A stretch of DNA of 64,000 nucleotides, taken from Lawsonibacter sp. GTDB taxonomy: Bacteria; Bacillota; Clostridia; Oscillospirales; Oscillospiraceae. Location of the stretch: assembly GCA_050943915.1 (NCBI GenBank), contig JBMNQB010000001.1, forward strand, positions 213,712-277,711, read 5' to 3'. Below the pieces are notes generated by a model. That model searched no databases. It saw only the letters and a list, made by a program, of their open reading frames with translations, and was not told where the DNA came from. The translations under genes were made by a program, and so were the position numbers. This document shows positions 9,890-42,672 of this stretch, piece by piece (positions within the stretch are counted from its first letter, which is position 1; each line of letters opens with the position of its first letter).

Positions 9890-10792
9890 ATGTGTAATTT
9901 CTCTCGACCAAACTCCGGCAGATCTTCCGGCGGCGGCGTCCCTGTGATCCCCCTTCCCAACCCAGGTGAGGGAGGCCCGGTGGACTCCGGCGGCGGCGTT
10001 CCAGTGATCCCCCTCCCCAACCCAGGTGAGGGAGGTCCGGTGGACTCCGGCGGCGGCGTCCCTGTGGTCCCCCTTCCCAACCCAGGCGAGGGAGGCCCGG
10101 TCTACCCAGGCGGCCAGGGGAGCGGGATCCCCGGCATCCCGGTGTGGCCCGCCGCGGCTCAGGTCCGCTTTCTCAATGCTGCCTACGGATACCCCGCCTT
10201 TCAACTTCTCATTGACGGCGTCCGGGCCGTCCGCTTTCTGGGGGGCGGAAGCCTCTCCCCCTACCGCCGTCTGCGGGCCGGGTATCATACCGTGTCAGTG
10301 GCCGGTCTGGACGGCTATATGTATCTGCAAAAGAGCATTCCCTTCGACGCTGGGAGCATCTCCACCCTGGCCGTCATCCTCCGGGCCGGCGGTCTGGATC
10401 TGCTCCAGATCTCAGACCGGTGCTGCCCGCCCACCGGCCGCTACTCCAATCTCCGGGTCAGCAATCTGGCCTATCACAGCAGACCCTTGGATGTGCTTCT
10501 GGCGGATGGCCGGGTGATCTACGCAGACGTCCGGTTCAAAGAGACCACCAGCTATAAGCGCATCCACCCCGGCACATACGAATTCTTCTTTGCTGAGACC
10601 AACCTCGCTCCCATCCCCTCCTATGCGGACATCGAGACGCTGGACTCTGCCTTCCTGGGCTCCACTCCCCCTGCCAATGTGGTGGCCTCCGACTATGTTT
10701 CCGTCTCCGGCCGCACCAATTATACCATCTTCCTCCTCAGCACCGGGAGCGCCCCGGACGCGGTCCAGGCGCTGACTGCGGCGGACCGGTGA
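9890..10792 (+). CDS. DUF4397-like protein with N-terminal Pro/Gly repeats
   Basis: Two AQVRFLNAA / NLRVSNLA beta-domain halves resembling DUF4397; RBS AAGGAGG upstream. Confidence 0.65.
   Translation: MCNFSRPNSGRSSGGGVPVIPLPNPGEGGPVDSGGGVPVIPLPNPGEGGPVDSGGGVPVVPLPNPGEGGPVYPGGQGSGIPGIPVWPAAAQVRFLNAAYGYPAFQLLIDGVRAVRFLGGGSLSPYRRLRAGYHTVSVAGLDGYMYLQKSIPFDAGSISTLAVILRAGGLDLLQISDRCCPPTGRYSNLRVSNLAYHSRPLDVLLADGRVIYADVRFKETTSYKRIHPGTYEFFFAETNLAPIPSYADIETLDSAFLGSTPPANVVASDYVSVSGRTNYTIFLLSTGSAPDAVQALTAADR
9926..10105 (+). repeat. 3 x 60 bp in-frame tandem repeat encoding SGGGVPVIPLPNPGEGGPVD
   Basis: Units start at 9926, 9986 and 10046; differences are mostly synonymous. Confidence 0.95.
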
Positions 10793-16659: not shown

Positions 16660-16674
16660 ACTTTACCCCTCCTT

Positions 16675-17349
16675 TCAACCGATGGTGACCAGTAGGTCGT
16701 CGGTGTTCACAGTGGCGCCCACATTGACGGCCACAGACTTGACGGTGCCATCCACAGGAGCGGAGACCTCGATCTCCATCTTCATGGCCTCCAGCACGAT
16801 CAGCACGTCGCCGGCCTTCACAGCCTGGCCGGGCTTGCACTCCACCTTAAAGATGTTGCCAGGCATGGGGCTGTTCACCGCGGTCTCACCGGCGGCCACA
16901 GCGGCAGGAGCCGCAGCGGGGGCCGGAGCAGGCGCAGGGGCAGCAGCGGGAGCGGGGGCAGCGGCGGGAGCCGGAGCCGCCGCGGGAGCGGCAGCCACAG
17001 GAGCGGCGGCGGGAGCCGCGCTCACGCTGGTGATGCGGAAGGAGTTGGGGGACATTCCGGAGTCCTCCGCAATGGCGGCCATCATCACGGCCACCAGCTC
17101 GCCCTCATCCACTGCGGGAGCGGCCGGCTTGGCGGCCGGCGCGGGGGCGGCAGCCTTCTTGGCGGCGGGAGCCGCGGCGGGCTTCTTCCCCTCAAGGGCG
17201 GCTACGATCTTGGAAATGACCCAAATAACCGCCATCAGCATGGCCAGCATCACAAAGACCACCAGCAGGCCGGAGGCGGCCACCAGCAGAGCCTCGCCGA
17301 CGCTCAGCGGCTCAAAGGGGTTAATAATCGCTTTCTCAACACTTGGCAT
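16675..17349 (-). CDS. OadG/GcdD-like membrane anchor fused to an Ala/Pro linker and biotinyl domain
   Basis: N-terminal single TM helix, ELVAVMMAAI motif, (AP)n linker, LEAMKME biotin site. Confidence 0.8.
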   Translation of the reverse strand: MPSVEKAIINPFEPLSVGEALLVAASGLLVVFVMLAMLMAVIWVISKIVAALEGKKPAAAPAAKKAAAPAPAAKPAAPAVDEGELVAVMMAAIAEDSGMSPNSFRITSVSAAPAAAPVAAAPAAAPAPAAAPAPAAAPAPAPAPAAAPAAVAAGETAVNSPMPGNIFKVECKPGQAVKAGDVLIVLEAMKMEIEVSAPVDGTVKSVAVNVGATVNTDDLLVTIG

Positions 17350-17366
17350 GGATCATGTCCCCCCTA

Positions 17367-17807
17367 TCAGCCCAGGGTGACCAGCAGATCGTCCGTATTC
17401 ACAGTGCCGCCCACATTGACGGCCACAGACTTGACGGTGCCGTCCACAGGAGCGGAGACCTCGATCTCCATCTTCATGGCCTCCAGCACGATCAGCACGT
17501 CGCCGGCCTTCACGCTCTGACCCACAGAGCACTCCACCTTGAAGATGTTGCCGGGCATGGGGCTGTTCACCGCAGTCTCACCGGCGGCGACCGCAGCGGG
17601 AGCGGCGGCGGGGGCGGGAGCAGCAGCAGGTGCAGGAGCGGCGGCAGGGGCGGGAGCGGGGGCAGCGGCGGGAGCGGGAGCTGCCACGGGCGCGGCGGCC
17701 ACAGGCGCGGCAGCTACGGGGGCGGCAACAGCAGCAGGAGCAGCAGCGCCGGTTTTCTCCACGGTCACGCTGTACACCTTACCGTTGACGGTCACATTGT
17801 AGTTCAT
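17367..17807 (-). CDS. gcdC: Biotin carboxyl carrier subunit of glutaconyl-CoA decarboxylase
   Basis: MNYNVTVNGKVYSVTVE, (AP)n linker, LEAMKME. Confidence 0.85.
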   Translation of the reverse strand: MNYNVTVNGKVYSVTVEKTGAAAPAAVAAPVAAAPVAAAPVAAPAPAAAPAPAPAAAPAPAAAPAPAAAPAAVAAGETAVNSPMPGNIFKVECSVGQSVKAGDVLIVLEAMKMEIEVSAPVDGTVKSVAVNVGGTVNTDDLLVTLG

Positions 17808-33022: not shown

Positions 33023-34381
33023 TCATCGGACCGTGGGACCCGCCATCGGCGCCTCCCGCCTCCACCGCTGGAGCTGCCGGAGGTAGAAGGCCACCCCCAG
33101 GCTGCCTGTGATGACCTCTGAGAGAGGATAGGCAAACCAGGTCGCCTCCAGGCTGATCTTGGAAAAGATCCAGAACAGGGGGATCAGACAAAAGATCTGC
33201 CGCACCACCGACAGCAGCAGACTGGGCCCCGCTGCTCCGATGGCCTGGAAAAATACCGGCGGCATCAGGGAGAGCACAGCGGGGATGAAGCTCAGCCCGA
33301 TGATACGGAAGGCGTGCACTCCAATGGCCAGCACCTCCGGGTCCTGGGAAAACAGGCCGATCAGGCGGCCCGGGATGCACTCAAAGCTGACCACGCCCAC
33401 CAGCATAAAGACCAGTGAGATCCCACAGGAGTCGTACAGGATCCGTTTGCACCGATCATAGGCCAGACAGGCGAAGTTATAGCTGAGGATGGGCACGATA
33501 CAGGTCTGAAGTCCGTTGAGCGGGATGAAGAAAAAGGACTGGAGCTTATAATACAGACCCAGCACGGTCACCGCGTCGTCCGAAAACCCGGCCAGGATCA
33601 TATTCAGAGCCATGATATACACGGTGTACAGCATCTGCATGAAAATGGAGGGGTAGCCCAGGCGGTAGATCTGCCGAACATACTTCCGCATCACCACCGG
33701 CTTGGGCGGGCGGCGGAAGCCGGAAAGCCCCGTAATGACCGCCGCCACACACTGGCCCACCACCGTGGCGATGGCCGCTCCCGCGATCCCCATGCGCGGA
33801 ACAGGACCCAGCCCAAAAATCAGGATGGGGTCCAGCACGATGTTGGTCAGCGCTCCGGCGATCTGGGCCAGCATGGGCAGACGCATATTGCCGCCCGCCT
33901 GGTGTACCTTGGTCCAGATGCTCTCCAGAAAGATCCCCAGGCTGCCCACACACACGATGTTTCCATAGAGCACCGCATCGGCTACCGCACCCGAAGAGGT
34001 CGCGGAGGTGCGCACATAGGGCTCCATCAGCAGAAGCGCCGCCGCTGCAAACACCGCCCAGCTGATGACTGCCAGCACCATCCCCGTCCCGGCCGTGCAG
34101 TCGGCCGCCCGCTTCTTTCCAAAGGCATACATCCGGGCCATATAGGTATTCACGCCCACGCCGGTCCCCACCGCGATGGCGGTAATGATCAGCTGGACCG
34201 GAAAAATCACGGACAGTGCTGTCAGGCCGCTGTTGGAATACTGTCCCACAAAGTAGCTGTCCACAATATTGTAAAGGGCCTGGATCAGCTGGGCCAGCAT
34301 CACCGGAGGCGCGATGCGCAGCAGGATCTTCCAGACACGCTCTGTCTGAAAATAGCGGTCATCCACAGCTGTCTGACTCAT
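33023..34381 (-). CDS. MATE-family efflux transporter
   Basis: PPVMLAQLIQALYNIVDSYFVG, NIVLDPILIFG, GIAGAAIAT. Confidence 0.9.
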   Translation of the reverse strand: MSQTAVDDRYFQTERVWKILLRIAPPVMLAQLIQALYNIVDSYFVGQYSNSGLTALSVIFPVQLIITAIAVGTGVGVNTYMARMYAFGKKRAADCTAGTGMVLAVISWAVFAAAALLLMEPYVRTSATSSGAVADAVLYGNIVCVGSLGIFLESIWTKVHQAGGNMRLPMLAQIAGALTNIVLDPILIFGLGPVPRMGIAGAAIATVVGQCVAAVITGLSGFRRPPKPVVMRKYVRQIYRLGYPSIFMQMLYTVYIMALNMILAGFSDDAVTVLGLYYKLQSFFFIPLNGLQTCIVPILSYNFACLAYDRCKRILYDSCGISLVFMLVGVVSFECIPGRLIGLFSQDPEVLAIGVHAFRIIGLSFIPAVLSLMPPVFFQAIGAAGPSLLLSVVRQIFCLIPLFWIFSKISLEATWFAYPLSEVITGSLGVAFYLRQLQRWRREAPMAGPTVR

Positions 34382-34593
34382 ATCCGTTCTCCCTTCCTGT
34401 CTCATGCAAACTCCCGGCTCCCGCCTGGCGATACGCCGCGGGAGCCGACAAATTATGATACCATTTCAAGGAAGAACTTCAAGAGGTAAAATGGGTAAAT
34501 CCCGCTGCATTTCCGCCGGTTTTATTGGCTTTCTGACAGTAAAACCAGTCCATGTCAGTTCACTTCGGGCGCAAGGCCCTCTGTCGCGCTCCT

Positions 34594-34876
34594 CCGTCTT
34601 ATCCGTTCAGCTTGGCGATCGCAGCCCTGGCAGCCATCTGCTCGGCCCTCCCCAAAAAGCTGCGCTTTCCGGGGACCCCTTTTTCTTTCATTCCTCGGGC
34701 GGAGTCAATCCGCCCTCCGGCAAAAAAATTCCCGGCCGCAGCCGGGAATTTTGTTTGGACGCGCCTTCCGGCGCGGCTCGCTTGCGCTCGCAAAAGAGGC
34801 CCGGGACAGACAGAGCTCTCCCCCGTCTTATCCGTTCAGCTTGGCGATCGCAGCCTTGGCAGCCATCTGCTCGGCC
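34594..34876. repeat. 54 bp duplication of the rnc 3' end (34594-34647 / 34823-34876) flanking a structured element
   Basis: 53/54 identical; 229 bp apart. Confidence 0.95.
34648..34822. mobile_element. Small structured non-coding element, copy 1 (MITE-like; mobility inferred)
   Basis: Shares TTCCGGGGACCC, a 32 bp core (31/32 identical) and TTGGACGC with 37893-38047. Confidence 0.6.
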
Positions 34877-35499
34877 TCTTTTTTACTATGGCCCTTGCCG
34901 CGGCCGGCCACCTCTCCGTTCAGGTCCACCTCTACAAAGAAGCGCTTGTCGTGGTCGGGGCCCTCCTCGCCGGTCAGGCGGTACTTCAAAACCTGGCCGC
35001 TCTCCCTCTGGACCAGTTCCTGAAGGGCGGTCTTATAGTCCCGGGGGCTGGTCAGTCCCTCCACCTCCCGGCAGAGGATATACTGCTGTATGATCTTCCG
35101 GGCCGATCCGATCCCGCCGTCCAGATAAACCGCGGCCAGCACTGCCTCCACGGCGTCCGCCTGGATGGAGGGGCGCTTTCGGCCGCCGCCGGACTCCTCG
35201 CCCTTGCCCAGGTGCAGATACTCGCCCAGATGCAGCGCCTCCGCCACCTCTACCAGGCTGTCCTCACACACCAGGGCCGCCCGGGTCCGGGTCAATTCCC
35301 CCTCCGGCAGATCCGGGTGATTGCGGTACAGGTGGTCGGCCACCACCATGCCCAGGATCGAGTCACCCAGGAACTCCAGCCGCTCGTTGCTCTGGAGGCG
35401 TCCCCGGCTCTCATTGGCACAGGAACTGTGGGTCAGCGCATTTTCCAGCAGCGCCGGATCCCGAAATTCATAGCCCAGCTTTTCTTCCAACGTGGTCAT
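34828..35499 (-). CDS. rnc: Ribonuclease III
   Basis: SNERLEFLGDSILG signature; C-terminal dsRBD (DYKTALQE...SKKEAEQMAA). Confidence 0.97.
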   Translation of the reverse strand: MTTLEEKLGYEFRDPALLENALTHSSCANESRGRLQSNERLEFLGDSILGMVVADHLYRNHPDLPEGELTRTRAALVCEDSLVEVAEALHLGEYLHLGKGEESGGGRKRPSIQADAVEAVLAAVYLDGGIGSARKIIQQYILCREVEGLTSPRDYKTALQELVQRESGQVLKYRLTGEEGPDHDKRFFVEVDLNGEVAGRGKGHSKKEAEQMAAKAAIAKLNG

Positions 35500-35581
35500 C
35501 AGAACCACTCCTCGTTCTTTGGTTCGACAGGCAAGCAAAACTCCGCCGTTGGGCGGAGTTCTGCGATGTATGTCGTTTGGA

Positions 35582-35815
35582 TCAGTCGATCTTGTTCTGG
35601 AGGAACCGGACCAGATCACCCACCGACTTGATGGAGGCAGCTTCCTCCTCGGTCAGTTCATCAATATCAAATTCCTCTTCCAATGCCATGGACAGATCCA
35701 CAATATCCACGGAATCCGCGTTCAGGTCATCTTCAAAGGAGGTATCCATGGTAATGGAATCCGCATCCACATTGAACTGCTCCGCGATCAGTGCGCACAC
35801 CTTTTCAAAAATCAT
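35582..35815 (-). CDS. acpP: Acyl carrier protein
   Basis: [12 protein letters not shown] phosphopantetheine motif. Confidence 0.92.
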
Positions 35816-35928
35816 AGCTGACTGCTCCTTTTGCTGTGCTCCAGCATAGTTTCTTTCCCTACTATATGCAGAAACCACCTGCCTGTCAATAGGGAATCCG
35901 GAATTTCTGTATATTCACCGGAAAATCG

Positions 35929-36960
35929 TTATTCTGCCTCCGGGGCGTCCAGCCGCATCAGGTCGATGTTGTCCGAGATATTCCCAATGATCCCGGAGGA
36001 GGCGAACTGATTGGCCTGGCGGATGGCGTTTTTGATGGCATAGGCATTGGAGGAACCATGAGCCTTGATCACCGGCTTGGAGATGCCCAGCAGGGCGGTG
36101 CCGCCCACCTCACTGGAGCTCATCAGCTTCTTGAATTTCTTCAGTCCGTCAGAGACCAGAGCCGCCGCCAGCTTGGTCATCAGGTTTTTCATAAAAATGC
36201 CTTTGATCTCCCTGGCCAGGAACAGTCCCGTCCCCTCCATGGTTTTCAGGAAAATATTCCCCGAGTAGCCGTCGGCCACGATGACGTCCACCGCGCCCTC
36301 CACCGCCTCCCGGGCCTCGATGTTGCCCACGAAGCAGATGCGGCCCTCCTCCCCCGCCTTTTTCAGCAGAGGATACACCGTGGTCTGGAGCTCCGTGCCC
36401 TTGGAGGGCTCCACCCCGATGTTCAGAAGGCCCACCTTGGGCTGTGGACGGCCCAGGACGTGCTCGGCGTAGTAGGAGCCCATATAGGCGAACTGGATCA
36501 GATACTCCGGCGGGCATTTTACGTTGGCCCCCGCGTCGATCAGCACTGCGCCGCCGTTTCCGGTGGGCACCACCGGGGCCAGGGCGGCCCGGCGGATCCC
36601 CCGGATCCGCTTGATCAGCAGGGTGGCCGCACCCAGCAGGGCGCCGGTGGAGCCGGCAGACACAAAGGCGTCCCCCTCCCCCGCTTTGAGCAGGTTCAGC
36701 CCCACCGTCAGGGAGGAGTCCTTCTTCTCCCGGAAGGCCGTGGCCGGGTTGTCGCAGATCTCCACCACCTCAGAGGCGTGGGCGATCTCCACCCCGGCGG
36801 GCAGCTCCTGGATGCCGTTTTCCTCCAGAACCTTCAGGATGTCCTCACCCCGGCCCACCAGGGTGATGCCCACCCCATACTCCTTGTTTGCCTGGATAGC
36901 GCCCATGACCGGCGCCTGCGGGGCGTTGTCTCCGCCCATGGCGTCCACGATGATCTTCAT
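35929..36960 (-). CDS. plsX: Phosphate acyltransferase
   Basis: IIVDAMGGDNAP, SAGSTGA, IDAGAN, KAHGSS. Confidence 0.96.
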   Translation of the reverse strand: MKIIVDAMGGDNAPQAPVMGAIQANKEYGVGITLVGRGEDILKVLEENGIQELPAGVEIAHASEVVEICDNPATAFREKKDSSLTVGLNLLKAGEGDAFVSAGSTGALLGAATLLIKRIRGIRRAALAPVVPTGNGGAVLIDAGANVKCPPEYLIQFAYMGSYYAEHVLGRPQPKVGLLNIGVEPSKGTELQTTVYPLLKKAGEEGRICFVGNIEAREAVEGAVDVIVADGYSGNIFLKTMEGTGLFLAREIKGIFMKNLMTKLAAALVSDGLKKFKKLMSSSEVGGTALLGISKPVIKAHGSSNAYAIKNAIRQANQFASSGIIGNISDNIDLMRLDAPEAE

Positions 36961-36961
36961 G

Positions 36962-37213
36962 TCAAGTTCCTTCTTTCTTCGGTGGTATCAAGGTCCTGGG
37001 CTCGTCGATCAAACCCAGAAGGTAGTCCGCTGAGACGTTGTAATGGGTACATATTGAAGCCAGGTTCTCAAACGAAGTCGTTCGACGGCCATTTTCAATG
37101 TCGCTGATCGCCGCCTGAGATACTCCGATGGCCTCGGCTAAATCCTTCTGCTGTTCTTTCGCATTTTTTCGCAGCTTTTTGACCCGCATACAAAAAATAT
37201 CCTTGTGATACAT
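36962..37213 (-). CDS. XRE/Cro-CI-type HTH protein
   Basis: QQKDLAEAIGVSQAAISDIENG...NVSADYLLG; GAGGAGG RBS. Confidence 0.88.
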   Translation of the reverse strand: MYHKDIFCMRVKKLRKNAKEQQKDLAEAIGVSQAAISDIENGRRTTSFENLASICTHYNVSADYLLGLIDEPRTLIPPKKEGT

Positions 37214-37224
37214 GGGGCCTCCTC

Positions 37225-37267
37225 TTGACTAACATTTGAATTCGCGATATGATATCGCTAATTCAAA
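37225..37267. promoter_or_regulatory. Divergent promoter with a 33 bp palindromic operator
   Basis: TTGACT (37225)-N17-TATGAT (37248); TTTGAATTCGCGATAT-G-ATATCGCTAATTCAAA (37235-37267, 1 mismatch). Confidence 0.75.
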
Positions 37268-37285
37268 TACATCGGTGGTGTCAAT

Positions 37286-37558
37286 ATGATTCCAGAGCTT
37301 CAAACCCTCTATTACTACGAGATCGACCACGCCCACCTGGACTTCGACTCCGATCCAACCTATCAGGAGAACATGGCCCGGGCGCTGGATGAATTGGGGA
37401 CCCGGGAGCTCTCCCCGGCCCTCTTTTCCCTGCTGAATACTGCGAACCAGATCTCCTTTACCCACGGCTTTCGCCTTGGGACCTCACTGGTTCGATGGGC
37501 CCTGCGGCGGTACACGCACCGGGCGCGTTCCCCCGGCAAAGCCAGGCGCAGAAGATAA
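37286..37558 (+). CDS. Small helical hypothetical protein (DUF6809-like)
   Basis: LQTLYY...ISFTHGFRLG; divergent from XRE; family assignment from recall only. Confidence 0.6.
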   Translation: MIPELQTLYYYEIDHAHLDFDSDPTYQENMARALDELGTRELSPALFSLLNTANQISFTHGFRLGTSLVRWALRRYTHRARSPGKARRRR

Positions 37559-37559
37559 A

Positions 37560-37819
37560 CCGCACCGGCCGCAATTTTGGGAAAACCAGGCCCCAGTGGG
37601 CCGGAAAGAACCGCTGACCGCCACTCAGATCTTGCGCGCCGGAAATGCTCAGATCATGTTCAGGCGTGCGTCCCCCGCAGCGGGGTCCGGGGAAAGCGGT
37701 CCTATGGACCTAGGCGGAGCAGAGCGGAGCCGTAGCCCATCGGCCGCGTCCCCGGCGATCCTTTGGTTTCTTTCCCATCGCTGGGAAAGAAACTCGCCGC
37801 CGGGGCGGCGAAGCTCCCC
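37560..37819. repeat. Hairpin-rich non-coding element (putative dispersed repeat/MITE)
   Basis: Several GC hairpins, e.g. TTTCTTTCCCA TCGC TGGGAAAGAAA and TCGCCGCC GG GGCGGCGA; no credible gene. Confidence 0.4.
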
Positions 37820-38120
37820 CCGCTCACTCCAGATCCAGCTGTCCCAGGGCCTCCAGCGCCCGCTTCGACAGCTCCGCATTTTTGTTCCGCTTTTCTCCCG
37901 GAAGCGTGTCTCTCACGCTTCCGGGGACCCGGTTTTTTGAATCCTCGGGCGGAGTGAATCCGCCCTCCGGCAAGGTCCGGCTCCGCCGGACGCTTGGACG
38001 CCGCACAGCGGCGGGGCGCTCATGCGCCCAAAGGCAAGCGGAGTCGTCCGCTTACTCCAGATCCAGCTGTCCCAGGGCCTCCAGCGCCCGCTTCGACAGC
38101 TCCGCATTTTTGTTCCGCTT
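37820..38120. repeat. 73 bp duplication of the trmFO 3' end (37820-37892 / 38048-38120) flanking a structured element
   Basis: 72/73 identical (TAA in gene, TGA in copy); 228 bp apart. Confidence 0.95.
37893..38047. mobile_element. Small structured non-coding element, copy 2 (MITE-like; mobility inferred)
   Basis: Same conserved blocks and hairpin order as 34648-34822. Confidence 0.6.
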
Positions 38121-39356
38121 GCCTTTGACCCGATAGCCCAATGGGGGGATCAGGCCGAAGTTCACATTCATCGGTTGAAAGTTTACCACACTTGGGTCGC
38201 TGATGTAAAGGGCCAGCGCCCCCATGGCGGTCTCCCGGGGGAAGTCGATGGGGCTCTTTCCCTCCAGCTCCCGGGCCAGCTCCAGGGCTGCCAGGCAGCC
38301 GGAGGCCGTGGACTCCACATAGCCCTCCACCCCGGTGACCTGTCCGGCAAAGCGGATGCGCGGCTCTGCCCGCACCCGGAAATAGCGGTCCAGCAGCCGG
38401 GGGGAGTCCAGGAAGGTGTTCCGGTGCATCACCCCATAGCGCACATACTCCGCATTCCGCAGGGCGGGGATCATGGAAAACACCCGCTTCTGCTCCGGCC
38501 ATTTCAGGTGGGTCTGGAAGCCTACAATGTTGTAGATGCTCCCCTGGGCGTTGTCCTTGCGCAGCTGCACCACGGCAAAGGGCTCCCGCCCGGTCTTGGG
38601 GTCCTTCAGGCCCACCGGCTTCAAAGGCCCGTAGCACAGGGTGTCCCGCCCCCGGCGAGCCATCACCTCCACAGGCATACAGCCCTCAAAGACCCCGGCG
38701 TCCTCAAAGCCGTGGACCTCCGCCTCCTGGGCGGTGACCAGGGCCTCCCAGAAGTGCTGGTACTCCTCCTCTGTCATGGGGCAGTTGATGTAATCCGGCG
38801 TCCCCCGGTCATACCGGGAGGCAAACCAGGCGCTCTCCATATCCACACTGTCAAAGGTGACCAGCGGGGCTGCCGCGTCAAAGAAGTGCAGATAGCCGTT
38901 CTCAGGATAGCGCCGGGCGATGGCCTCCGCCAGGGGGTCGGAGGTCAGCGGCCCGCTGGCCACGATGACCTGTCCCTCCGCCGGAAGGTCTGTGACCTCC
39001 CCCTCCTCCACGGTGATCATGGGGTGGCTCCGAAGCTTCTCCGTGATGGCCTCGGAGAAGGCGTTGCGGTCCACTGCCAGCGCGCCCCCCGCCTCCACCC
39101 GGTGTGCGTCGGCGCAGGCCATGATCAGGGAGCCGCAGCGGCGCAGCTCCTCTTTCAGCAGCCCCACCGCGTTCTCCAGCTGGTCGGAGCGCAGGGAGTT
39201 GGAGCACACCAGCTCGCCGAAGGACGGGCTGTGGTGGGCCGGGGTCATCTTTTGGGGCTTCATCTCCCGGAGCGTCACGGGGATCCCCCGCCGGGCCAGC
39301 TGCCAGGCGGCCTCGCTGCCCGCCAGGCCCGCTCCAATCACAATTACAGGTTCCAT
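38052..39356 (-). CDS. trmFO: Folate/FAD-dependent tRNA (uracil-5-)-methyltransferase
   Basis: VIGAGLAGSEAA, ELVCSNSL, VGFQTHLKW, YGVMHRNTF, GVEGYVES. Confidence 0.96.
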   Translation of the reverse strand: MEPVIVIGAGLAGSEAAWQLARRGIPVTLREMKPQKMTPAHHSPSFGELVCSNSLRSDQLENAVGLLKEELRRCGSLIMACADAHRVEAGGALAVDRNAFSEAITEKLRSHPMITVEEGEVTDLPAEGQVIVASGPLTSDPLAEAIARRYPENGYLHFFDAAAPLVTFDSVDMESAWFASRYDRGTPDYINCPMTEEEYQHFWEALVTAQEAEVHGFEDAGVFEGCMPVEVMARRGRDTLCYGPLKPVGLKDPKTGREPFAVVQLRKDNAQGSIYNIVGFQTHLKWPEQKRVFSMIPALRNAEYVRYGVMHRNTFLDSPRLLDRYFRVRAEPRIRFAGQVTGVEGYVESTASGCLAALELARELEGKSPIDFPRETAMGALALYISDPSVVNFQPMNVNFGLIPPLGYRVKGKRNKNAELSKRALEALGQLDLE

Positions 39357-39400
39357 GGGTCCCTCCTGATTCTGATTTTCCTTGTGTGTTTCGCGGCGCG

Positions 39401-39607
39401 TCACCGCTCGTCTGTCCGTCCCACCAGATAGTCGATGGTGACGCCATAAAAATCGGCCATCTGCCACAAGGCAGACGCGTCTGGCTCACGCTCCCCCGCC
39501 TCATACCGGCGGTAGGAGCGATAGGCGATCCCCATTTTTTCCGCGGCTGTCTGCTGTGTCAGGCGCTGCTCCGTCCGCAGATACAAAAGTCTCTCTGATA
39601 ATTTCAT
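39401..39607 (-). CDS. XRE-type HTH protein
   Basis: LTQQTAAEKMGIAYRSYRRYEAGEREP...ADFYGVTIDYLVGR. Confidence 0.88.
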   Translation of the reverse strand: MKLSERLLYLRTEQRLTQQTAAEKMGIAYRSYRRYEAGEREPDASALWQMADFYGVTIDYLVGRTDER

Positions 39608-39732
39608 CCCATCTCTGGAACAGTCTAATCTATCTTGGCAGAGCCTTCAATATGGAGACCTTCTGTTCCTTTACCTCCGCTCGTCTGTCCGTCCCACCAG
39701 ATAGTCGATGGTGACGCCATAAAAATCGGCCA
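39404..39732. repeat. Identical 56 bp 3' segments of two tandem XRE genes (39404-39459 / 39677-39732)
   Basis: 56/56 identical, 273 bp apart; upstream parts of the genes are divergent. Confidence 0.95.
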
Positions 39733-39889
39733 GAGCGATCAGCATTTTGATGTTAGGCTCGTTATCCTCGCTCTCATAAAATTGATAGCCCCGAATGCTG
39801 ATCCCCAGATACTCAGCTAACTCCTTTTGGCTCACCTTGCGCTCTTTTCTCAGCACTCGCAAACGATCTCCAAACAATTTATGACTCAC
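39671..39889 (-). CDS. XRE-type HTH protein
   Basis: VSQKELAEYLGISIRGYQFYE...ADFYGVTIDYLVGR; GTG start. Confidence 0.88.
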   Translation of the reverse strand: MSHKLFGDRLRVLRKERKVSQKELAEYLGISIRGYQFYESEDNEPNIKMLIALADFYGVTIDYLVGRTDERR

Positions 39890-39892
39890 CTC

Positions 39893-39941
39893 TTGACATG
39901 TATAATTTATTCGTGTTATAACATGTATAAATTATACATGT
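39893..39941. promoter_or_regulatory. Divergent promoter with repeated ACATGTATAA operator half-sites
   Basis: TTGACA (39893); TG-N-TATAAC (39917); ACATGTATAATTTAT (39896-39910) inverts perfectly to 39927-39941; 39921-39941 is itself a palindrome. Confidence 0.75.
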
Positions 39942-39954
39942 TTGGGGTGGTTCT

Positions 39955-40218
39955 ATGACCCGTCTGTCCAGTGTCCTCTATCAGTACGTCCTGGAGCGCT
40001 CAGAAGCCTTTCTGGCCCTCATGCCGGAATATCCGGACTGCCGCCGCTTCTCCGGCGAGCGGGAGGCCGCCCTGCGGGCTGTCCTCTCCCCGGACGCCCG
40101 CATCCTTCTGGACGACCTTCTCCGGGAACGGGCGCTCCAGCACAGGGCGGAGCAGGAGGCCGTCTTTCAGGCCTCCCTCAGCCTGTGCCGGGAGCTGTAC
40201 CGGTCCGCCCTGGGGTAG
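39955..40218 (+). CDS. Small helical hypothetical protein (DUF6809-like)
   Basis: 87 aa, VLYQY...EQEAVFQASLSLCREL; same position relative to an XRE gene as 37286-37558. Confidence 0.6.
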   Translation: MTRLSSVLYQYVLERSEAFLALMPEYPDCRRFSGEREAALRAVLSPDARILLDDLLRERALQHRAEQEAVFQASLSLCRELYRSALG

Positions 40219-40236: not shown

Positions 40237-42672
40237 TCACGCCTCTCCGTCCGTGCTCTCCCCGTCCGCCTTTTTAGCGGCGGTTTTCTTGGCGGCTGTC
40301 TTTTTGGCGGCTGTCTTTTTGGCGGTTGTCTTTTTCGCCGCAGTTTTCTCAGCCGCCGTCTTGGACGCTGTCTTTTTGGCGGTGCTGGTCTTTTTTGCGC
40401 CGGTCTTGGAGTCCGCCGTTTTTTTGGCCGTGGTCTTTTTCCCGGCAGCCTTCTTGGTCTCGGGCTGCTTCTCCTCCGGGGAGGTCCCGGCCTCGCCGTC
40501 CCCCTCCCCGGCGGCGTCTGCCGTCTTTTTCTTCCAGCCGCCCCGCTTCTCCTCCGGGGTGAAGTTGGGGCAGCCCTCATGGATGCAGAAGGGCTTCTTG
40601 AACCCCCGCCCTGACTTCTTGAACATGGTCCAGCCGCACTCCGGGCAGTTGTCCTTCACCGGCACGTCCCAGGTCATAAAGTCGCACCTTCTGGCCTCGT
40701 CCTTGCTGTTGAGATGCTCACAGCAGTAATAGGTGTACTGCTTATTGGTCTTTTTGCTCTTTCCCGTGCGCTTGAGCAGGCGGCCGCCGCACTTGGGGCA
40801 CTTGCCGGGCATCTCCACCACCAGGGGCATGGTGAAGTCGCACTCCGGCCAGCCAGGGCAGGCCAGGAAGCGGCCGAACCGGCCGGACTTAATGACCAGG
40901 TTCCGGCCGCACTGGGGGCAGATCTCCTCTGAGACCTCGTCGGGCACCTTGATGCGCTCTCCGTCCAGCTCCTGCTCCGCCTTGTGGAGCTCCGCCTCGA
41001 AGTCCTCGTAGAACTCGGACAGGACCCGCTTCCAGTCCACGGTGCCCTCCTCTACCTTGTCCAGCTCTTCCTCCATCTGGGCGGTAAAGGTGGGGTCCAC
41101 GATGTCCTGGAACTTGTCCTTCATCAGACCGGTGACCACCTCTCCCAGAGGGGTGGGCCGGAGGGCCCGCCCCTCCTTCACCACATACTCCCGGTTGAGG
41201 ATGGTGGAGATGGTGGGGGCGTAGGTGGAGGGGCGTCCGATTCCCTTCTCCTCCAGGGCGCGGATCAGGGTGGCCTCGGAGTAACGGGCGGGAGGCTGGG
41301 TGAAGTGCTGCTCCTTCCGGGTCTCCTTCAGCTCCAGAGGCTCCCCCTCCCGCAGATCGGGCAGGGGGGACTGGGGGGCCTCCTCCTCGTCGTCCCGGCC
41401 CTCCTCATAGACGGCGGTAAAGCCGGAGAACTTCAGCTCCGAGTGGCTGGCCCGGAAGGTATAGCCGGCGGACTGCGCCTCGATGGAGACGCTGTCATAC
41501 ACCGCGCTGGCCATCTGACAGGCCAGGAAGCGGCTCCAGATCAGCTTATAAAGGCGGAACTGCTCGCTGGTCAGGTCCTTCTTGATGTCCTCCGGCACCA
41601 GGTTCACGTCGGAGGGCCGGATGGCCTCGTGGGCGTCCTGGGCGTTGCCCTTGGACTTGTAGTGCCGGGCCTGGGGGGGATAGTACTCCCGGCCATAGCG
41701 GTGCTCGATAAAGCCCTTGGCCGCGGCGATGGCCTCCTCCGACAGGCGGAGGGAGTCGGTACGCATATAGGTGATCAGACCCACTGTGCCCTCGCCGGTG
41801 ATGTCAACCCCCTCATAGAGCTGCTGGGCGATGGACATGGTTCGGGCGGGGGTCATGTTCAGCTTGCGGGAGGCCTCCTGCTGGAGGGTGGAGGTGGTGA
41901 AGGGGGGCGCGGGATTGCGCAGCTTGTCCTGCCGCTTCACCTTGGAGACGGTAAAGGGCTGGCCCGACACCGCCTGGATCACAGCGTCCGCCTCCGCCTC
42001 GCTGTGCAGCTCCATCTTTTTCTCCCGGCCATGGAACATAGCCTGGAACCCGCCTAAATTGGGACGCACCCGGCCCAGGTCCGCCTGGATGGACCAGTAC
42101 TCCTGGGGCTGGAAGGCACGGATCTCCTCCTCCCGCTCCACCACCAGGCGGGTGGCAACCGACTGCACCCGGCCGGCGGACAGCCCCCGCCGGATCTTCT
42201 TCCACAGCAGGGGAGAGAGCTCATAGCCCACGATCCGGTCCAGGATGCGCCGGGCCTGCTGGGCGTCCACCAGGTTCTGGTCGATGGCCCGGGGGCTGGC
42301 AATGGACTCGTTGACCACCTTTTTGGTGATCTCATTGAAGGTCACCCGATAGGTCTTGTCATCGGGGATGCCCAGCAGCTCCTTCAAATGCCAGGAGATG
42401 GCCTCCCCCTCCCGGTCGGGGTCGGTGGCCAGATAGACCCGGCCGCTCTTTTTGGCCGCCTTTTTCAGGTCGCTGATCACATCCTCCTTTCCCTTGATGG
42501 GCTGATAGTTGGGGATGAACCCGCCCTCGATGTCCACGCTCATCTTGCTCTTGGGCAGATCCCGGACGTGCCCCATGGACGCTTTCACTTCATAGCCCGG
42601 GCCAAGGTACTTTCCAATGGTCTTTGCCTTGGACGGGGACTCTACGATCACCAGATCAGTTTTTGATGCCAT
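40237..42672 (-). CDS. topA: DNA topoisomerase I with Zn ribbons and a Lys/Ala-rich tail
   Basis: VIVESPSKAKTI, ATDPDREGEAI, ITYMRTDS catalytic Tyr, zinc ribbons, C-terminal (KKTAA)n. Confidence 0.97.
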   Translation of the reverse strand: MASKTDLVIVESPSKAKTIGKYLGPGYEVKASMGHVRDLPKSKMSVDIEGGFIPNYQPIKGKEDVISDLKKAAKKSGRVYLATDPDREGEAISWHLKELLGIPDDKTYRVTFNEITKKVVNESIASPRAIDQNLVDAQQARRILDRIVGYELSPLLWKKIRRGLSAGRVQSVATRLVVEREEEIRAFQPQEYWSIQADLGRVRPNLGGFQAMFHGREKKMELHSEAEADAVIQAVSGQPFTVSKVKRQDKLRNPAPPFTTSTLQQEASRKLNMTPARTMSIAQQLYEGVDITGEGTVGLITYMRTDSLRLSEEAIAAAKGFIEHRYGREYYPPQARHYKSKGNAQDAHEAIRPSDVNLVPEDIKKDLTSEQFRLYKLIWSRFLACQMASAVYDSVSIEAQSAGYTFRASHSELKFSGFTAVYEEGRDDEEEAPQSPLPDLREGEPLELKETRKEQHFTQPPARYSEATLIRALEEKGIGRPSTYAPTISTILNREYVVKEGRALRPTPLGEVVTGLMKDKFQDIVDPTFTAQMEEELDKVEEGTVDWKRVLSEFYEDFEAELHKAEQELDGERIKVPDEVSEEICPQCGRNLVIKSGRFGRFLACPGWPECDFTMPLVVEMPGKCPKCGGRLLKRTGKSKKTNKQYTYYCCEHLNSKDEARRCDFMTWDVPVKDNCPECGWTMFKKSGRGFKKPFCIHEGCPNFTPEEKRGGWKKKTADAAGEGDGEAGTSPEEKQPETKKAAGKKTTAKKTADSKTGAKKTSTAKKTASKTAAEKTAAKKTTAKKTAAKKTAAKKTAAKKADGESTDGEA

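Follow-up and report, generated by a model that had tools for sequence, protein, structure and literature searches.

A structured intergenic repeat of Oscillospiraceae associated with a duplicated gene end and an inverted copy of the target site

A non-coding element of about 150 nt, here called E, lies just past the stop codon of trmFO in this Lawsonibacter genome, between two copies of the end of that gene, and contains no open reading frame. It is a new structured intergenic repeat, and for its insertion signature we found no counterpart among known mobile elements and enzymes: the end of the host gene reappears on the far side of the element, and an inverted copy of the target site, which we call the guide, stands directly 5' of the element core. 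The layout found at trmFO and at a second gene, rnc, recurs far beyond chance in gut Oscillospiraceae, since a flanking direct repeat was present at 111 of 157 usable copies of E. The trmFO repeat may be the target duplication of an old E insertion whose junctions were made by template-switch (snap-back) DNA synthesis. We hold this reading tentatively and consider it possible, if somewhat short of probable; the anatomy was observed directly, and the template-switch mechanism is what we infer from it. In the following, the window is the whole stretch of DNA that was analysed (64,000 nt), and G000 denotes this genome.

The trmFO and rnc loci

The last 73 nt of trmFO are duplicated. Positions 37820-37892 and 38048-38120 form a direct repeat of 73 nt that is identical at 72 of 73 positions, with a spacing of 228 bp, as the first-pass annotation of this DNA had reported. 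The other case that it had cited, with a nearly equal unit at rnc, was borne out as well: there the repeat comprises 34586-34647 and 34815-34876, the spacing is 229 bp, and the stretches between the repeats of the two loci are homologous to each other. The rnc repeat is shorter (54-62 bp) because its distal end has diverged and not because the event itself was shorter. The parts of both loci are listed below, X being the duplicated target and a|b the target site.

38052-39356, minus strand: trmFO-like gene, 434 aa (Pfam GIDA, E = 2e-92; list of open reading frames)
38114-38127, minus strand: target site a|b (CAAAGGC|AAGCGGA), which forms the 5' arm of a long-range stem (inverted repeat, 14/14 complementary)
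38048-38120, minus strand: X, gene-proximal copy of the duplicated target, 73 nt (direct repeat)
38043-38047, minus strand: 5-nt joint from X to guide (comparison with relative G014)
38029-38042, minus strand: guide, 14-nt inverted copy of the target site (TCCGCTTGCCTTTG), abutting the element core on its 5' side, 71 nt from the target arm
37921-38031, minus strand: element core, five covarying hairpins (covariance model R1, 97.8 bits)
37893-37920, minus strand: element 3' tail, a variable hairpin closed by CCCC/GGGG, with the end ...GGGAGAA (sequence)
37820-37892, minus strand: X', downstream copy of the trmFO 3' end, with a TGA stop at 37824-37826 (direct repeat, relatives)
37785-37815, minus strand: GC-rich hairpin and T-run past X', also the start of a second, unrelated repeat family (sequence; repeat matches)
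34828-35520, minus strand: rnc, host gene of the sister copy (confirmed as RNase III)
34586-34876, minus strand: whole rnc sister locus, with X at 34815-34876, X' at 34586-34647 and the core at 34670-34791
34873-34882 and 34792-34801, minus strand: target arm and guide (GGCCTCTTTT) of the rnc locus, exactly 71 nt apart

Orthologues of trmFO were present in 103 of the 112 genomes of the genus. The duplication starts at position 38120, with 7 nt of the target site upstream of this start, and it includes the stop of the gene copy (TAA, 38052-38054). The long-range stem between target site and guide appeared in the minimum-energy fold of the RNA (z = -5.6), and its arms are exactly 71 nt apart, as they are at rnc. 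In G014 the joint is 8 nt long (GCGGGCGG) and resembles GCGGGGGG, which follows the stop in the downstream copy of G000. On the opposite strand, the tail of E is a terminator-like hairpin followed by a T-run. The hairpin and T-run past X' are likely, to judge from their sequence, the native terminator of trmFO.

The two copies differ in their stop codon, TAA in the gene and TGA downstream. Which of the two is ancestral, a question raised at first pass, was settled by comparison: the gene copy carries TGA in G014, G101, G103 and G063, and the locus of this strain reads C at 38053, hence TGA, in three of four metagenomes. TGA is therefore ancestral, and the TAA seen here is a late, strain-specific change of the gene copy.

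Directly downstream of the duplicated trmFO end, at 37560-37819, lies the second, unrelated repeat family. It is about 250 nt long, with several occurrences in the related genomes G013, G065, G117, G129 and G131. Copies of a 58-nt part (37750-37807) with 95% identity were found on three other contigs of this genome, and 37682-37801 were covered by contigs from size-fractionated gut RNA libraries.

Other repeats of the window were noted as well. Two tandem genes of XRE-type HTH proteins (68 and 72 aa) share identical 56-nt 3' ends (39404-39459 and 39677-39732), 273 bp apart. They were rejected as a case of the same phenomenon, as neither an element nor an inverted copy lies between them (the longest complement is 6 nt), and conversion between paralogues is the probable origin of the shared ends. 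A repeat scan also gave two 300-nt copies with a GC-rich 9-nt periodicity, 692 bp apart (16667-17748), and three 60-nt tandem units (9926-10114). Tandem units of 15 nt occupy 40251-40460, within the 3' part of the open reading frame 40237-42672.

Extent, anatomy and age of the element family

E had no match in Rfam 15 at an E-value of 1 or below when 34000-40200 were searched; the best signal was a sub-threshold match to the BSnc120 hairpin, with 28.8 bits against a gathering score of 114. A covariance model built from five distinct copies first found in this genome recovered 33-36 copies in its 2.16 Mb, and matches in 23 of 61 relatives. The family comprises hundreds of copies across Oscillospiraceae, where a pattern search of species-representative genomes placed it in Pseudoflavonifractor, Flavonifractor, Lawsonibacter, Intestinimonas and Flintibacter; 16 IMG/VR contigs matched the pattern too. 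The core of 113 nt folds into five helices, with 94% of cells paired over 64 distinct copies and compensatory changes at 28 of 29 pairs, values that none of 500 shuffles reached. On the gene-sense strand, G-U pairs were only slightly in excess of A-C pairs (34 vs 21). E is rich in G and C at both ends (5' GGGGCC..., 3' ...CCCC-hairpin-GGGG), and alignments showed no consistent terminal inverted repeat. Contigs from RNA libraries matched the conserved loop region of E only, and such contigs carry no strand, so that these libraries provided no coverage of E that could be used.

The anatomy was determined with a single script for 157 usable oriented copies, drawn from this genome and over 100 loci elsewhere. 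Repeats and elements often form arrays X(EX)n, many of them with two or three units, and truncated terminal units were seen in arrays. In a well-preserved copy the order is: the gene up to a|b and X (about 78 nt, including the stop), the inverted a|b of 9-16 nt, the five-hairpin core, the tail GGGRN, b with X again, and the native downstream flank. The span of the target from the start of the duplication to the guide had a median of 78 nt (IQR 75-83), and guide plus element a median of 149 nt.

The first-pass annotation had described a duplication of varying length in a unit of nearly constant length, and had seen in this a fixed-length intermediate or a ruler. The tabulation of units and substitutions that it had called for bears this out in part. 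Unit length over 109 loci had a median of 222 bp with an IQR of 213-235, but its full range was 158-272 bp, and the short repeat at rnc, on which the variation of the duplication had been based, is the diverged one. The unit is nearly constant because the target span and guide plus element are each nearly constant; the one does not compensate for the other. A trade-off between repeat length and element length was discarded, as the lengths of duplication and element were uncorrelated (r = 0.05). What remains of the ruler, besides the 78-nt duplication and the 149-nt insert, is a tighter quantity, the distance between target and guide: its median was 71 nt, it lay between 65 and 75 nt in 49 of 63 loci, and it was independent of the apparent repeat length (25-98 nt).

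These 63 loci, out of 109, are the ones with a guide, that is, a perfect inverted target copy of 9-16 nt adjoining the core on its 5' side; in two controls, with the loci permuted or the search interval shifted, 2-3% had one. Relative to the start of the duplication, the guide begins at -7 to -2 (mode -6) and ends at +4 to +13. Well-preserved repeats extend right up to it. At 11 clean loci the overlap between the guide and the end of X was 0, 0, 0, 0, 0, 0, 1, 2, 2, 3 and 4 nt, with about 0.33 expected by chance. Purines dominate the consensus of the insertion sites, A-A-G-G-A|G-G; position -2 is G in 49 of 63 sites and +1 is never T, with orthologous loci inflating these counts. This consensus resembles a Shine-Dalgarno sequence, so that many guides resemble the anti-Shine-Dalgarno sequence of 16S rRNA (CCTCCTT).

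Two further claims made at first pass did not survive the larger sample. The pattern of A in the gene and G in the copy was not general: over the 109 loci, the 370 differences between X copies were mostly transitions, which ran both ways (A>G 75, G>A 48, C>T 69, T>C 80), and the per-base change rates between copies (4.3% for A, 4.2% for C, 2.5% for G and 5.0% for T) showed no adenine bias. Likewise, the reading frame that the copy shares with codons of the element is due to chance, the unit lengths modulo 3 being uniform (38:36:35 over 109 loci), and a coding potential of the unit was rejected on the same ground. An open reading frame of 60 codons on the minus strand (37824-38006) starts with GTG inside the element and enters the downstream copy of the trmFO end in frame; it is probably not expressed, given the missing frame bias in unit lengths family-wide.

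The joined flanks of 14 loci of this genome were searched for in four close relatives. Uninterrupted sites were found in G014 (pgk, a HIT gene and two more loci), G101 (three loci) and G103 (one), with identities of 87-96%, and these empty sites were colinear with the downstream copy and its flank. At the empty sites of G014 for pgk, HIT and C2a the guide was absent. Since the guide is missing there and the repeat reaches up to it in filled sites, what was inserted is guide plus element, with about 78 nt of target duplicated. One uninterrupted site in G101 retained the guide and six bases of the element, which fits what recombination between two long repeats of a G000-like state would leave. 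Metagenome contigs showed the filled form only, and much of the pattern of presence and absence may be loss by recombination between repeats.

In orthologous loci of different species the guide agreed with the local variant of the target, at trmFO (G115 and G010 vs G128), at a lepA-like cluster and in the pair L176/L120. The same sites are reused in different species, and trmFO is occupied by two different subfamilies of the element. The trmFO repeats of G000 and G014 differ at three positions, and each difference is common to both X copies within a genome. From these sequences, the X copies appear to be kept alike by gene conversion, as concerted evolution over repeats of 73 nt, and their near-identity is therefore uninformative on age. 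Between different X-E-X loci of this genome, the similarity of the cores does not exceed 74% and has a median of 51%, so the insertions are old and their junctions may have been remodelled. The comparison of cores between loci gave no sign of recent transposition in this genome, and no insertion intermediate was seen.

E lies just past stop codons and in the orientation of the gene. A sense-strand open reading frame ends inside the repeat or the joint at 94 of 109 loci, and the stop precedes the guide by 0-10 nt at roughly half of the loci that were scored. The hosts are housekeeping genes, among them rnc, trmFO, pgk and uvrB. A host gene would stay intact only where the 78-nt duplication still holds the stop and the insert fits the short spacer behind it. 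An inverted copy would terminate the operon, as the tail read on the opposite strand is a hairpin with a T-run. In G014, a complete genome with dnaA at position 401, 12 loci were co-oriented with replication and 7 head-on, if symmetric replichores are assumed. This is close to the usual gene bias and gives no support to a strictly lagging-strand-specific mechanism; orientation follows the gene and not the fork. We infer that the biases in position and orientation are survivorship.

Nine copies without a flanking repeat are neighbours of a convergent tRNA gene, 37-62 nt away, and have a terminator in common with it. This tRNA-adjacent subfamily (C1:72564-72679, C2:151338-151454 and C32:6623-7159, outside the window; loci L057, L065 and L069) has a bidirectional terminator and a conserved 5' extension of about 55 nt. 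On C32 it forms a three-unit array with a period of 210-211, and some copies have a promoter-like box, TTGnnn-N17-GATATT, upstream. By these features they may be free-standing small-RNA genes or source copies. In G042, a member of a different family in the order, this core has about 60 occurrences, which lie within mosaic intergenic repeats (loci L247-L265) that include head-to-tail copies and other recurring modules, e.g. ...GCCTCGCAGAGTT...; these core copies have neither a gene-end duplication nor a guide.

A tentative mechanism and its alternatives

A whole-genome Pfam search covered five enzyme families: reverse transcriptase, Y1, IS4-type DDE, TnpB and IS110. None of them co-occurred with E, and none was found in G042 (60 copies), G010 or G031. 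G013, with 44 copies, had no reverse transcriptase, Y1 or IS110. The reverse transcriptase domain PF00078 was absent from 12 element-bearing genomes (G013, G042, G010, G030, G031, G017 and others) and had one match in G000, on another contig. The Y1 domain PF01797 was absent from G000, G013, G042, G010, G030 and G031, and DDE_Tnp_1 from G000, G010, G023, G031, G033, G036 and G042. The zinc-ribbon domain of TnpB and the DEDD domain of IS110 did not co-occur with E. As five families were covered, an unrecognised enzyme specific to the element is possible.

The template-switch reading would account for the junctions with neither a reverse transcriptase nor a recognised transposase. E would enter in single-stranded form, and a DNA polymerase that switches templates would make the junctions. 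The DNA strand growing through the target would first copy about 78 nt. It would then snap back by about 71 nt and copy the start of the target backwards to a 5' end at -6, which would give the guide. Synthesis would continue into single-stranded E and return to the target at position 0, and the duplication would result. Repeated template cycling, or later unequal crossing-over, would produce the arrays X(EX)n and their truncated last units. After insertion, the guide would track its target via palindrome-correcting template switches, and the X copies would follow each other via gene conversion. Only copies that spare the open reading frame and do not terminate the operon would survive, and this would explain the position after the stop and the sense orientation. 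The lack of microhomology at 6 of the 11 clean junctions speaks against template switching. So do the age of all the insertions, with neither an intermediate nor a recent transposition seen, and the core copies of G042 that have no duplication or guide. Furthermore, the snap-back model in itself sets no distance of 71 nt and provides neither a source of single-stranded E nor an initial nick. One SSB tetramer wrapping the displaced strand would be a guess at the source of the 71 nt.

In a wider reading, E would be the footprint of an unrecognised kind of bacterial DNA insertion, in which a structured single strand is written into the sense strand at gene ends, by host replication or repair enzymes or by a guide-using integrase, with a ruler of about 71 nt that yields both the 78-bp duplication and the guide. 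We consider this conceivable, though on the unlikely side. If it were true, the guide could direct homing or excision of the 227-nt unit. The perfect target complement of 10-16 nt at a fixed distance would be either the record of a snap-back or a natural guide. Should the signature reflect a real mechanism, small elements would have, alongside transposases and reverse transcriptases, a third means of colonising bacterial genomes, and such an insertion would spare genes, whose 3' ends are rebuilt. In practical terms, E units put a structured module of 150 nt, putatively RNA, into the 3' UTR of many housekeeping genes, and the decoy gene ends that they create break assemblies and mislead annotation.

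A guide at one fixed end of a conserved scaffold, at a fixed distance from its target, could also be a guide in the functional sense. E, as RNA or single-stranded DNA, would then bring along a programmable guide that existed beforehand and base-pairs at a|b with the sense strand, and an integrase would insert E about 71-78 nt downstream. CRISPR-associated transposons, too, insert at a set distance from the target of their guide. The reuse of sites across species and the occupation of trmFO by two subfamilies would agree with such guide-directed integration. However, the guide differs at every non-orthologous locus, and there is no visible way for the element to gain new ones; it follows single-base variants of the target between species; its outer end varies (+4 to +13) and sometimes overlaps the duplicated target; and neither TnpB nor IS110 is associated with E. 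We therefore think it improbable that the guide directed the integration.

The offset between the end of the guide at -6 and the 3' joint of the element at 0 is consistently 6-7 nt, and tyrosine recombinases exchange strands 6-7 nt apart. E might thus have moved by site-specific recombination of a folded single strand, comparable to integron attC sites or CTX-phage/Xer, where the stem of a.b and guide would mimic the target duplex and replication would resolve the product. The target AAGGA|GG and the element end GGGRN share a weak preference, arrays exist, and precise loss leaves intact sites. But the preference in the targets is weak and inflated by orthologous loci, the targets are not dif-like, and no dedicated recombinase was identified. 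Recombination of this type would cover re-integration and excision of a unit that already has X and guide, not the gain at a new locus, and as the origin of the signature we rate it as a distinctly poor candidate.

The strong covariation of the core, with its slight excess of G-U over A-C, the sense orientation at 94 of 109 loci and the long persistence of copies could be explained if E had no mobility of its own and were a functional RNA module of 3' UTRs, spread by ordinary recombination, with a stem maintained by selection and repeats made by hairpin-promoted slippage. The tRNA-adjacent members, whose promoter-like box and terminator give them the look of independent small-RNA genes, would fit in here. 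What stands against it is that dozens of unrelated genes have perfect complements of 10-16 nt, which cannot arise stepwise, that more than 100 unrelated targets show the same anatomy, and that comparison with empty sites reveals a clean insertion plus duplication. It seems rather remote that a functional module without mobility produced these features.

Retro-insertion, finally, would have E RNA behave as a linear group II intron does and attack a|b on the sense strand; with the other strand nicked downstream, X, E and guide would be copied by target-primed reverse transcription. This accounts for how the parts are ordered, why the target is duplicated and where the filler at the joint comes from, and the complementarity of the guide to the joined flanks follows the logic of intron guide sequences. 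But it requires a pre-existing guide, E has no Rfam intron match, the differences show no adenine or reverse-transcriptase-like error spectrum, and 12 element-bearing genomes, G013 (44 copies) and G042 (60) among them, lack reverse transcriptase, so that we find it hard to credit. The error-prone reverse transcription suggested at first pass falls with the absent adenine bias, the ancestral TGA and the element-rich genomes that have no reverse transcriptase.

Comparison with known systems

A full-text literature search found no description of the element or of its insertion signature. Several known systems share single features with E. Group I and group II introns, the IS605 guides of TnpB and IscB and those of IS110 have, like E, a short fixed segment of a structured scaffold that is complementary to the uninterrupted target. 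In E, unlike in intron, omega-RNA and bridge-RNA guides, the complementary segment is absent from the empty sites and is not simply flanking DNA, and the duplication is long. Group I and group II introns were rejected since 34000-40200 gave no Rfam ribozyme-core match at an E-value of 1 or below; to our knowledge, about 150 nt is also below the size of known introns. Omega-RNA of IS605 and bridge RNA of IS110 were dismissed because the TnpB and IS110 domains do not co-occur with E.

REP/BIME and MITE-like repeats are, like E, short, multi-copy, hairpin-rich and non-coding, and are found after genes. Some of these repeats are mosaic or tandem, as E is in G042. REPs measure about 35 nt and have Y1 (RAYT) transposases as partners; MITEs carry terminal inverted repeats, and their duplications span 2-10 bp. 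E, in contrast, has a five-helix core of 113 nt, a 78-bp duplication, an arm derived from the target and no association with Y1. A MITE or an IS-derived non-autonomous transposon was accordingly rejected, given a duplication of 78 nt instead of 2-10 bp and no co-occurrence with any tested transposase, and so was REP/BIME with RAYT, whose Y1 (HUH) partner PF01797 is absent from the six genomes listed above.

In diversity-generating retroelements, as here, the 3' end of a gene occurs twice at a short distance, with a structured non-coding stretch between. E loci, however, have no adjacent reverse transcriptase, their hosts are housekeeping genes, and their copies are homogenised and not diversified. 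A diversity-generating retroelement was excluded, as the differences are not confined to adenines and no reverse transcriptase is associated.

Among the bacterial elements that we could document, only IS1549/IS1634 share long target duplications with E; theirs measure 8-514 bp, and no proposal exists on how they arise (PMC2266710). These insertion sequences are 1.5-2 kb in size and encode a DDE transposase of about 500 aa, their duplications vary widely, and they have no inverted copy of the target, whereas E has 150 nt, is non-coding and keeps a tight duplication span of about 78 nt. Membership in the IS1634 family was rejected, as E has no open reading frame and DDE_Tnp_1 is absent from the seven genomes named above.

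The template-switch reading has its closest counterpart in errors of DNA synthesis. Snap-back insertions and quasi-palindrome template switches leave an inverted copy of nearby sequence at the junction, with occasional microhomology, and their arms later co-vary. Such errors are sporadic and come without a fixed distance or an element, whereas the geometry of E recurs at dozens of loci.
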